Positions 1 through 5,456 of a stretch of DNA of 32,000 nt are shown one piece after another. This DNA is from an uncultured Calditrichaceae bacterium. Lineage in GTDB: Bacteria > Zhuqueibacterota > Zhuqueibacteria > Oceanimicrobiales > Oceanimicrobiaceae. Location of the stretch: NCBI GenBank assembly GCA_964455375.1, contig CAYVXE010000003.1, positions 50,805 to 82,804 on the forward strand, given 5' to 3'. The first letter of the stretch is position 1. Every line of letters begins with the position of its first letter. Position numbers and translations under genes: made by a program. The notes below the pieces were generated by a model. That model had not been told where the DNA came from and searched no databases. It saw only the letters and a list, made by a program, of their open reading frames with translations.

Positions 1-234
1 ACCGAACTAACGTTTTCAACGGTACTCATCGTCAATCTATTGGGCTACCTGGTCATTTACTCGCTTGGAATCTTGATTCTTTATGTGAACTTGAATTACG
101 TTGTTGGTCAGTCAAGACTTTTTTCAGAAGTTCTCTGGCTGGGTTGTTTTATCTTTATTCCGGGAAGTCTCATAAAGGCCACCATTAGCGCATTTGTTAC
201 GTTGAAATTAACGAATGTTTTAAACAGGTTATGA
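1..234 (+). CDS. C-terminal fragment of an integral membrane protein, possibly a BioY-like/ECF S-component (N-terminus outside the window)
   Basis: Frame 1 is open from base 1 to the TGA at 232-234. The sequence is hydrophobic throughout. The C-terminal ...LGCFIFIPGSLIKATISAFV resembles the conserved PF(I/L)PGD(L/I)(I/L)K end of BioY proteins. The stop overlaps the anmK start (ATGA at 231-234). Confidence 0.4.
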   Translation, partial: TELTFSTVLIVNLLGYLVIYSLGILILYVNLNYVVGQSRLFSEVLWLGCFIFIPGSLIKATISAFVTLKLTNVLNRL

Positions 235-3254: not shown

Positions 3255-4223
3255 ATGTCCTCTTCTTCCGTTTCGCGTCAAAACCATCTCGTTGCTTTGC
3301 TGGCATTCACGACTGTCCTCTTTGCTTCGTGTACCCGGTCCGTCACCGGCGATGCTTCAATCGTAATGAACTGGCAGGCCGTGGATTCGCTCAACACAAA
3401 ATTACCCGATGGAATACGGGTCTATTCCGGTTCCAACGAGCATTTGCCGTTGAAAGCGTGGTATGTGCGTATTCAAGAGTCCCGGCCAGAGATTTTTACA
3501 AAAGTATTGCTGTCGGATGATTCCAGAGACAATCGTGAGACCGTCTCCAGTTTTGCCCATGATGAAAACGCCGTCGTCGCAATCAACGCCGGCTATTTTG
3601 TAATGGGACAAACGCCAGCGCGACATGCCGGTTTACTGGTTTGTGATGGCAAAATAATGGCTTCTGCAACGCGATCTGTTATGCGAAAAGCGGTCCGGTA
3701 TCCCGCAGCCCGCTCAGCGATCGGCTTTACTGAAGACGATAGAATTGATATCAAGTGGGTGCGCAATCGTCACGATACGCTTTTCGCCTGGTCCGAACCA
3801 CTTAAAAACAGGCAAAACAAACCGAAAAAGTTAGATTTTAAGCGAGCGATCCTGTGGCAGGTGAACGATGCCGTTTCTGCCGGCCCCATGTTAATTTCCA
3901 AAGGTAAGGTTCATGTGGCGACAGACGAGGAAGTGTTCTTCGGGTCTGCCATTCCCAATGTCCATCCGCGGAGCGCCGCGGGAATTACCGCCAATGGCGA
4001 GCTTATTTTAATGGCTGTGGATGGTCGTCAACCGGAGAGCCGCGGCGTTAACCTGGAAGAACTTGCTGATTTAATGCTCGGAGTTGGCTCTGTGTGGGCG
4101 CTGAACTTAGATGGTGGCGGATCCACGACTCTAATCGTGAACGGTCTTCGCCTGAATCGTCCGTCGGGTGGGGACACCGAACGAGAAGTCATGTCGGTGC
4201 TGGCGACATTTGTCAGAAAATAG
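3255..4223 (+). CDS. phosphodiester glycosidase family (DUF2233) lipoprotein
   Basis: A signal peptide with lipobox is present (LFASC). Family motifs are INAGYF and NLDGGGSTT. Confidence 0.75.
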   Translation: MSSSSVSRQNHLVALLAFTTVLFASCTRSVTGDASIVMNWQAVDSLNTKLPDGIRVYSGSNEHLPLKAWYVRIQESRPEIFTKVLLSDDSRDNRETVSSFAHDENAVVAINAGYFVMGQTPARHAGLLVCDGKIMASATRSVMRKAVRYPAARSAIGFTEDDRIDIKWVRNRHDTLFAWSEPLKNRQNKPKKLDFKRAILWQVNDAVSAGPMLISKGKVHVATDEEVFFGSAIPNVHPRSAAGITANGELILMAVDGRQPESRGVNLEELADLMLGVGSVWALNLDGGGSTTLIVNGLRLNRPSGGDTEREVMSVLATFVRK

Positions 4224-4264
4224 CAAGGCTCAGAGAAAACATGTAGCACCGAAAGGGATCTTGA

Positions 4265-4609
4265 ATGAAAAAAGTAGATTGGTTTTATTTTCGCAACGGC
4301 TGAACGAGCTGTAAGAGAGCGCAAGAGTTTCTTGCCTTGAATCATGTGGACATCAATACGACAGTCAGCGCCTCAAAGAAATTGCAGATTGAGGATGCAA
4401 AGAAACTCCTTAGGGAGAAGGAGCGGCTGTATGTTGCGAAGGGGAAAAAGATCAGACGTTTTAATTTGCAGGAAGACATTGCGACTCCGGAAGAGTTGGT
4501 TACATTTCTTTTAGGTCCTACGGGAAACTTGCGTGCCCCCACGATCCAGGTCGGTCGTACATTACTCGTAGGTTTCAACCAGGCAATTTATGAAGAAGTT
4601 TTCAGGTAA
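4265..4609 (+). CDS. ArsC/Spx-family selenoprotein (114 aa, Sec encoded by TGA 4301-4303)
   Basis: The ATG at 4265 immediately follows an in-frame stop at 4262-4264, with AAGGGA 7 nt upstream. The translation reads MKKVDWFYFRNG-U-TSCKRAQEFL and runs in frame into the track ORF 4337-4609. The U-T-S-C sits where ArsC/Spx proteins carry CxxC. The C-terminal LRAPTIQVGRTLLVGFN matches the family (Spx: LLRRPIIIDEKRLQVGYN). Confidence 0.75.
4321..4335 (+). promoter_or_regulatory. candidate SECIS-like hairpin downstream of the in-frame UGA
   Basis: GCAAGA-GTT-TCTTGC is a perfect 6-bp hairpin with GU in the apical loop. It starts 17 nt after the UGA. Whether it matches a real bacterial SECIS model is unverified. 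Confidence 0.4.
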
Positions 4610-5456
4610 GGCGTCTCAAATAAATATACAAAAGAAAAGATGGTTACAGGTGCTGGTCTTTTCTGTTTGCATCGTTGTGATCGTTCTCTTTTTGGTTTCA
4701 AACACGCTTAAAATTCAAACGGTTAATTTACAGCAGTCATCCTTTTCAAACGTCTTGCGGGGCAAGCGGGCAATTTTACTAAGCGACTTGCATCTGAGCG
4801 CGGGAAACAAGACGTCTGTTTCACAATTATTGTTCGCTATCGAAAAGATAAAACCGGACATTATTTTCCTGGTGGGTGATTTTGTTCCCTGGACCTCGAC
4901 AAAAGAGGATTACAGGAATGTTTTCCATTTTCTAAAAGAACTATCTGCTCCGCTTGGTGTGTACGCGGTTTTGGGTGATTCGGATTATCAGCGCAGCAGG
5001 GAGAGTTGTACCTTTTGCCACAGTCAGAATATACGCAAACCGACACCGCTAAATCAGGTTAAATTTATCCGGGACAGTTTTATCGATCTGAACCTGAACG
5101 GTCGTTTCTTGCGCATTGCTGGTGTTGACAGCCGTGAGGGGCTGAGACCGCGACTGCAAAATGTTCCACCGCTTATCGTTCGCACACCGGTCATCTTGCT
5201 TAGCCATACATCGACGGTATATCATAAAATTCCGAAAGGCAGGAATGTACTCGTTCTGTCTGGTGATACCCATGGTGGCCAGGTTTATTTGCCGACTTTT
5301 CTATGGAAACTTTGGGGTCGTAAACCGGACCCGGAGCACATGTACGGTTATTTCAAAGATGGTGAGAAAAGTTTGTATGTTACCAGTGGCACAGGTACAT
5401 CCGATTTCCCGTTTCGTTTTGGGGTGCGGCCTGAAATAGCCGTGTTTAAATTTTAG
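4590..5456 (+). CDS. metallophosphoesterase (calcineurin-like) with N-terminal membrane anchor
   Basis: Motifs present are LSDLHL, VGDF, LGDSD and GDTHGGQ. An N-terminal TM is present (WLQVLVFSVCIVVIVLFLV). The start overlaps the selenoprotein gene by 20 nt. Confidence 0.8.
   Translation: MKKFSGKASQINIQKKRWLQVLVFSVCIVVIVLFLVSNTLKIQTVNLQQSSFSNVLRGKRAILLSDLHLSAGNKTSVSQLLFAIEKIKPDIIFLVGDFVPWTSTKEDYRNVFHFLKELSAPLGVYAVLGDSDYQRSRESCTFCHSQNIRKPTPLNQVKFIRDSFIDLNLNGRFLRIAGVDSREGLRPRLQNVPPLIVRTPVILLSHTSTVYHKIPKGRNVLVLSGDTHGGQVYLPTFLWKLWGRKPDPEHMYGYFKDGEKSLYVTSGTGTSDFPFRFGVRPEIAVFKF

Follow-up and report, generated by a model that had tools for sequence, protein, structure and literature searches.

The window, a stretch of 32,000 nucleotides (G000:C3:50805-82804) from an assembly of 230 contigs that is 98% complete, carries a short gene of which standard ORF calling recovers only the latter part. 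An earlier note on this DNA had pointed out that the ORF list gives solely a 90-aa frame from 4337, that the same frame can be read from an ATG at 4265 through TGA 4301-4303 into it, and that this ATG is the first codon past an in-frame stop. All of this holds on re-reading, the extended frame comprising 114 codons, with TGA 4262-4264 as the in-frame stop immediately ahead of ATG 4265-4267. Two details need adjustment: the AAGGGA upstream of the ATG stands 6 nt from it rather than the 7 nt claimed, and the gene span of 4265-4609, correct at its start, ends at 4612 when the stop codon is included. The TTG-initiated ORF is part of the selenoprotein and does not represent a separate gene. Downstream, a metallophosphoesterase ORF on the same strand (window 4590-5456) would overlap the 3' end of the selenoprotein gene by 20 nt if it starts at ATG 4590, with ATG 4640 as an alternative start. 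The features of the locus are collected in Table 1.

Table 1. Features of the selenoprotein locus, in window coordinates.
Feature	Position	Strand	Remarks and basis
Selenoprotein CDS	4265..4612	+	114 aa, Sec13; translation, NF041106 match, conserved N-terminus in orthologues
Shine-Dalgarno-like AAGGGA	4253..4258	+	6 nt upstream of ATG 4265; read off the sequence
UGA Sec codon	4301..4303	+	Residue 13, first position of U-x-x-C; TGA column kept in orthologues, Cys in homologues
TGT codon of Cys16	4310..4312	+	Presumed resolving cysteine of UxxC; invariant in 52/52 aligned family members
SECIS hairpin	4317..4338	+	Fold; invariant loop, pairing, compensatory changes, codon fixation
TTG-initiated ORF	4337..4609	+	90 aa; mechanical ORF list; C-terminal 79% of the real protein
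TAA stop of the selenoprotein frame	4610-4612	+	Frame read on from ATG 4265

Read through the TGA, the frame places the motif U13-T-S-C16 at the presumptive redox site, and the proposal that this TGA occupies the first position of the CxxC motif of the family is borne out by comparison with homologues. Twelve full-length homologues carry Cys at the TGA column within a C-x-T-C motif (P0006-P0016 and P0031; alignment A1), so that Cys-containing relatives do place their Cys opposite the TGA, as the earlier note had suggested should be checked. All seven orthologues found in related genomes (34-57% identity) contain exactly one in-frame TGA, located at the same column, and share the N-terminal pattern D-W-x-Y-x-R-x-x-U-x-x-C. 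A broader scan, with one genome per species, found more than 590 relatives, from which the best 80 loci were taken; TGA stands at the Sec column in 75 of the 76 that could be parsed, and TGC in the remaining one. The TGA loci belong to Gammaproteobacteria/Pseudomonadales, Planctomycetota, Acidobacteriota, Myxococcota, KSB1, Zixibacteria and others, and together with the seven relatives they bring the number of orthologues that keep the TGA column to 82. Because the N-terminus is conserved and the TGA column aligns with Cys, the residues ahead of the TGA form part of the protein, and the family uses either Sec or Cys at the TGA position.

These comparisons bear directly on the view that the TGA simply terminates translation, in which case the true product would be the 90-aa protein from TTG 4337 and the 12 codons from ATG 4265 would be a chance mini-ORF. 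This is exactly what standard ORF calling yields, most database homologues are annotated likewise, and TGA is a normal stop in the host genome, where it closes 679 of 2,427 long frames (28%). However, the 12 residues encoded before the TGA are conserved across phyla, fall within the family model (the NF041106 match begins at residue 4) and constitute strand 1 of the predicted fold, whereas a protein begun at TTG 4337 would be missing strand 1 along with the entire UxxC motif; the TGA itself is conserved in 82 orthologues. In a 52-sequence alignment (A4), the invariant positions are W6, Y8, R10, U/C13, C16 and the G-x-x-G-N-L-R-x-P block; since the first three lie upstream of the TGA, the start of the protein is not at 4337, and the ordinary-stop explanation is extremely unlikely. 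The conservation of the N-terminal segment had itself been named in the earlier note as a point to be verified, and it was found as anticipated.

The same data argue against a pseudogene, in which a Cys codon (TGY) would have mutated to TGA in the host lineage. Such a change requires a single step from TGC or TGT, and Cys forms of the family do exist, the locus L068 being an example, but the TGA is present in 7/7 relatives and 75/76 distant loci, the remaining frame is intact and conserved, and the downstream codons show no relaxed selection. A nonsense mutation, moreover, would not bring with it a conserved downstream hairpin and the codon fixation described below, and the probability of this alternative is close to negligible.

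Two of the scanned loci deserve separate mention. L068, in a Bdellovibrionales MAG (SYDY01000101.1), is the sole TGC locus among the 76 parsed; inspected by eye, it has no downstream hairpin and lacks GUU at the conserved position, as would be expected if the hairpin were needed solely for Sec insertion. In a relative whose genome is 70% complete, the orthologue (L038/L039; G024:C264:881-1218) is split over two frames, 881-1069 and 1054-1218, indicating a frameshift besides the Sec TGA that is either real or an assembly error.

Downstream of the UGA lies a perfect 6-bp hairpin, GCAAGA-GTT-TCTTGC, at 4321-4335. It starts 16-17 nt past the UGA, in agreement with the 17 nt reported before. The core stem pairs 4321-4325 with 4331-4335, the invariant apical-loop GUU corresponds to 4327-4329, and folding of the window sequence allows the stem to be extended by pairing 4317-4319 with 4336-4338, leaving C4320 bulged. 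When folded as a single sequence, the hairpin is not unusually stable relative to shuffled versions (z = +0.67 and -0.72), and the weight of the argument therefore rests on the comparison of orthologues rather than on this one sequence. An Rfam scan of positions 4000-4900 at E<=10 returned no SECIS and no other credible family, which is little surprise given how difficult it is to describe bacterial SECIS elements by one model (PMC12013277).

Among orthologues, with the U of the UGA taken as position 1, GUU occupies positions +27..29 in 81 of 81 distinct Sec-type sequences. Its flanks adopt either of two pairing registers, in which 6.9 of 8 positions are paired on average versus 2.6-4.1 at slid offsets, a control that is unaffected by the sorting of sequences into subtypes. 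When the sequences are assigned to two subtypes by their better-pairing register, a procedure that inflates the per-subtype percentages, 94% of cells pair in the subtype of the window (26 sequences, stem CGCAAG/CTTGCG; 26-64% with the 3' partners slid) and 88% in the larger sister subtype (52 sequences, stem based on TCCA/TGGA), giving a range of 88-94% across both versus 20-64% slid. The window subtype displays almost no covariation, its changes being mainly from A-U to G-U. The sister subtype exhibits compensatory changes in 5 of 8 pairs (24 cells), and its covariation score was reached by none of 500 shuffles. Stem sequences show no relation between the two subtypes, yet both stems close on the same loop.

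Two independent signs at the level of the protein agree with this. Over the hairpin, codons are almost fixed in the seven closest orthologues (CTT for Leu and GAG for Glu, each in 7/7), versus three to four synonymous codons in use for invariant residues outside it. Phe22, whose UUY codon supplies the UU of the loop, is invariant in all 41 Sec forms, with Y, F, H or C at this position in Cys forms; residue 21 of Sec forms is confined to E, K, G, R or Q, and the third position of its codon is G in every one of the 81 nucleotide sequences. The RNA element constrains the protein sequence in this way, fixing Phe22 and the third base of codon 21 in Sec forms only. The GU in the apical loop is the SelB contact in the E. 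coli element.

As judged by sequence comparison, the hairpin is a conserved SECIS element selected as RNA, and UGA 4301-4303 is a conserved coding position aligned with Cys. The SECIS search recommended in the earlier note finds its answer here, as the hairpin behaves as a SECIS over 81 orthologues with respect to loop, pairing and compensatory changes. It also bears the published hallmark of bacterial SECIS elements, namely a small apical loop with a conserved G right after the UGA (PMC1088965). Like the E. coli fdhF-type element captured by the bSECISearch consensus, it is a stem-loop of the coding region that follows the UGA immediately and carries a conserved G in its small apical loop (PMC1088965); its stem differs in sequence, however, and its loop GUU is fixed at +27..29 and tied to a conserved x-Phe codon pair.

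The selenoprotein call had been taken to imply a selA/selB/selC/selD system in this organism, and the host genome contains selA, selB and two selD genes, as well as the 3' part of a selC truncated by a contig end. Full-length selB is located on C151 (339.4 bits against a cut-off of 242.25), and selA on C52 (G000:C52:27630-28949; 552.9 bits against 267.9) runs into the contig end. The two selD genes score 399.1 and 382.5 bits against 125, the second having Sec at the canonical site. Directly downstream of selB (L001:3432-4493, G000:C151), selD contains a single in-frame TGA at codon 21 within S-C-A-G-U-A-G-K, the catalytic Sec/Cys site of selenophosphate synthetase; it encodes a Sec-containing SelD and constitutes a second, textbook selenoprotein gene of the host genome, which a standard gene caller would truncate as well. 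The other selD (L010:322-2529, G000:C58) encodes 735 aa without any in-frame stop and carries a NifS-like class-V aminotransferase domain at its N-terminus, an arrangement suggestive of a cysteine desulfurase or selenocysteine lyase fused to SelD.

Conventional searches for tRNA-Sec gave negative results: Rfam RF01852 retrieved only class II Leu/Ser tRNAs from the host genome, ARAGORN reported no tRNA-Sec in the whole genome, a loose anticodon/T-loop regular expression produced only noise, and an Rfam scan around selA, selB and selD yielded nothing. A 91-nt 'tRNA-???' with a two-base anticodon, called by ARAGORN at G000:C32:6116-6206 (minus strand), was dismissed as spurious owing to its poor acceptor stem. 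Probing with a tRNA-Sec from a same-family relative, however, located the 3' part of selC at the end of C70 (G000:C70:22703-22753, minus strand). In the reverse-complemented contig, the terminal 51 nt can be aligned with the tRNA-Sec of relatives over the variable arm, T arm and 3' acceptor strand; a 35-nt core is 94% identical to a tRNA-Sec of the same family, and synteny extends to the flanking gene, which shows 73% amino acid identity over 191 aa to the neighbour of tRNA-Sec in a same-family relative. The 5' half with the anticodon was not found at contig ends or elsewhere in the assembly. The end of C70 cuts selC just 3' of the anticodon stem, and the tRNA searches therefore suggest, probably wrongly, that tRNA-Sec is absent. 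Full tRNA-Sec genes occur in 17 of 20 relatives, and the host would probably possess a complete one. An arrangement in which selC adjoins selA, both lying at contig ends, was also considered and lacks support, as relatives have no selA beside tRNA-Sec.

The presence of this system bears on a further alternative, in which the TGA specifies a standard amino acid, Trp or Gly as under genetic codes 4 or 25, or is passed by unspecific readthrough. Three full-length database homologues (P0003-P0005) do have W at the Sec position, some gene caller having read Trp, presumably by translating the TGA as such. Nevertheless, TGA is not reassigned in this genome because it closes more than a quarter of the long frames; the true full-length homologues have Cys in the CxxC motif and never Trp or Gly; a dedicated Sec system, including a Sec-containing SelD, is encoded; and the G in the small apical loop of the hairpin is a SECIS hallmark (PMC1088965). 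Either form of this alternative is accordingly very improbable.

Taken together, TGA conservation, the SECIS element and the Sec genes support the selenoprotein interpretation as a whole, and we assign a probability of about 93% to the reading that 4265-4612 on the forward strand is one gene, encoding a 114-residue selenoprotein of the ArsC/Spx superfamily (NF041106), likely an oxidoreductase, whose UGA is read via SECIS. Going by how bacteria are known to insert selenocysteine, SelB loaded with Sec-tRNA(Sec) would bind the hairpin at about 4317-4338, including its GUU apical loop, while the ribosome is positioned at the UGA, and selenocysteine would be inserted there in place of termination.

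In terms of family, the window protein with its TGA translated as Cys (P0001) was used for profile scoring. It matches NCBIfam NF041106 (ArsC_rel_Se_1, "ArsC family (seleno)protein") at 122.9 bits (E 7.8e-36), well above the cut-off of 85, residues 4-109 covering profile positions 1-107 of 107. The match to Pfam PF03960 (ArsC) is marginal, at 25.8 bits over residues 11-111 against a gathering threshold of 24. Membership among the Spx/MgsR regulators was rejected, as the scores fall below the curated cut-offs (38.3 against 75.05 bits for TIGR01617 and 28.7 against 123 for NF002459), and so was membership among the arsenate reductases, for which no equivalog model appears among the NCBIfam matches at E<=1. 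The earlier suggestion that the rest of the protein fits an ArsC/Spx fold is borne out by the NF041106 and Pfam ArsC scores and by the fold matches of a predicted structure.

Selenoproteins of this kind have been recorded repeatedly. The Sargasso Sea survey reported ArsC-type selenoproteins with a UxxS motif as "arsenate reductase" (PMC1088965), complete genomes revealed "ArsC-like" selenoproteins in Desulfotalea and Desulfuromonas (PMC1794560), and the GOS survey distinguished "ArsC 1" (pfam03960, UxxS) from "Arsenate reductase 2" (cd03032, UxxC, 42 Sec sequences) (PMC2398784). With its UxxC motif, the window protein fits the latter family, which corresponds to NF041106. It shares with this family the UxxC motif with Sec in first place, the alternation of Sec and Cys, a full-length score above the cut-off and a SECIS hairpin that immediately follows the Sec codon and bears a G in its small apical loop (the criterion of PMC1088965). 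There is no structural difference between the window protein and the family; the window gene is mis-called as a 90-aa ORF. The remark in the earlier note that ArsC-like selenoproteins are already known and that the novelty is modest was correct (NCBIfam NF041106; PMC1794560; PMC2398784).

The relationship to better-characterized proteins is more distant. Spx/MgsR proteins (TIGR01617), which are CxxC redox-switch regulators binding RNA polymerase in Firmicutes, provide the top sequence and fold match among solved structures, with an N-terminal CxxC at the same position and an equivalent L-R-x-P loop ahead of strand 3, whereas the window protein has Sec in place of Cys, scores below the TIGR01617 cut-off and reaches a TM-score of only ~0.55. 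Together with R773-type ArsC, the UxxS "ArsC 1" proteins (PMC1088965, PMC2398784) and YffB, it belongs to the common PF03960 clan/family and shares a thioredoxin-like core with an N-terminal nucleophile. Unlike "ArsC 1", however, it has a UxxC rather than a UxxS motif, and unlike glutaredoxin-coupled ArsC, its locus is without nearby ars genes.

A confident AlphaFold2 model built from the 52-sequence alignment (pLDDT 95.2, pTM 0.87) comprises a strand at 6-9, a helix at 14-25, a strand at 33-35, a helix at 42-49 and a beta-hairpin at 54-59/62-67, followed by a helix at 75-80, strands at 93-96 and 99-102, and a helix at 106-113. By fold, the model comes closest to Spx, to ArsC-related proteins without assigned function, to YffB and to glutaredoxins, with TM-scores of only ~0.55, and sequence matches to solved structures are weak (E 3e-4 for Spx). 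The predicted beta-hairpin and short helices of the middle part may be the reason for this only moderate superposition on Spx. In the model, Sec13 is situated at the N-terminal end of helix 1, right after strand 1, which would be the nucleophile position of thioredoxin-fold CxxC proteins, and P92 of the invariant N-L-R-A-P segment immediately precedes strand 93-96, a location that would correspond to the conserved proline loop of the thioredoxin fold.

The genomic neighbourhood includes an upstream NAGPA-like glycosidase gene and nearby genes for a metallophosphoesterase and an AI-2E transporter; no ars operon context was found among these neighbours. Across orthologous loci there is no conserved neighbourhood, one close relative alone sharing the AI-2E transporter gene, and context therefore offers no functional clue. 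By analogy with thioredoxin-fold chemistry, the product is most likely a small selenol/thiol oxidoreductase: Sec13 would serve as the nucleophile at the start of helix 1, Cys16, one helical turn on, would be the resolving residue, the conserved G-P-T-G-N-L-R-A-P loop would end in proline ahead of strand 3, and the protein would cycle through a Sec13-Cys16 selenenylsulfide. Neither arsenate reduction nor Spx-like binding of RNA polymerase by the window protein is supported.

The immediate value of these findings is for annotation. Gene calling reduces the gene to a 90-aa fragment devoid of its active site, and most database homologues have suffered the same fate: close homologues are mostly 77-90-aa fragments that begin after the Sec codon and cover ~70-80% of the query, and about 100 of the top 120 database matches (P0002-P0121) are truncated. 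The family is systematically mis-annotated in public protein sets, either as post-Sec fragments or with Trp at the Sec position. As it has been catalogued as a selenoprotein family since the marine surveys of 2005-2008, the present result corrects a gene call and is not a discovery; it adds a new member to a known family and leaves general knowledge of selenoproteins unchanged.

A more far-reaching proposal combines two parts, and their joint truth is rather unlikely at present. It holds that the UxxC family might be a distinct group of thioredoxin-fold selenol oxidoreductases with its own middle subdomain, neither arsenate reductase nor Spx-type regulator, and that its SECIS, whose GUU at +27..29 never varies while the stems can replace one another over at least six phyla, might define a delimited cross-phylum class of SelB recognition. 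If this were true, a recognition constraint of SelB shared across phyla would even fix a Phe in the protein. For the organism itself, the genome sequence indicates active use of selenocysteine, which helps in interpreting other in-frame TGAs there.
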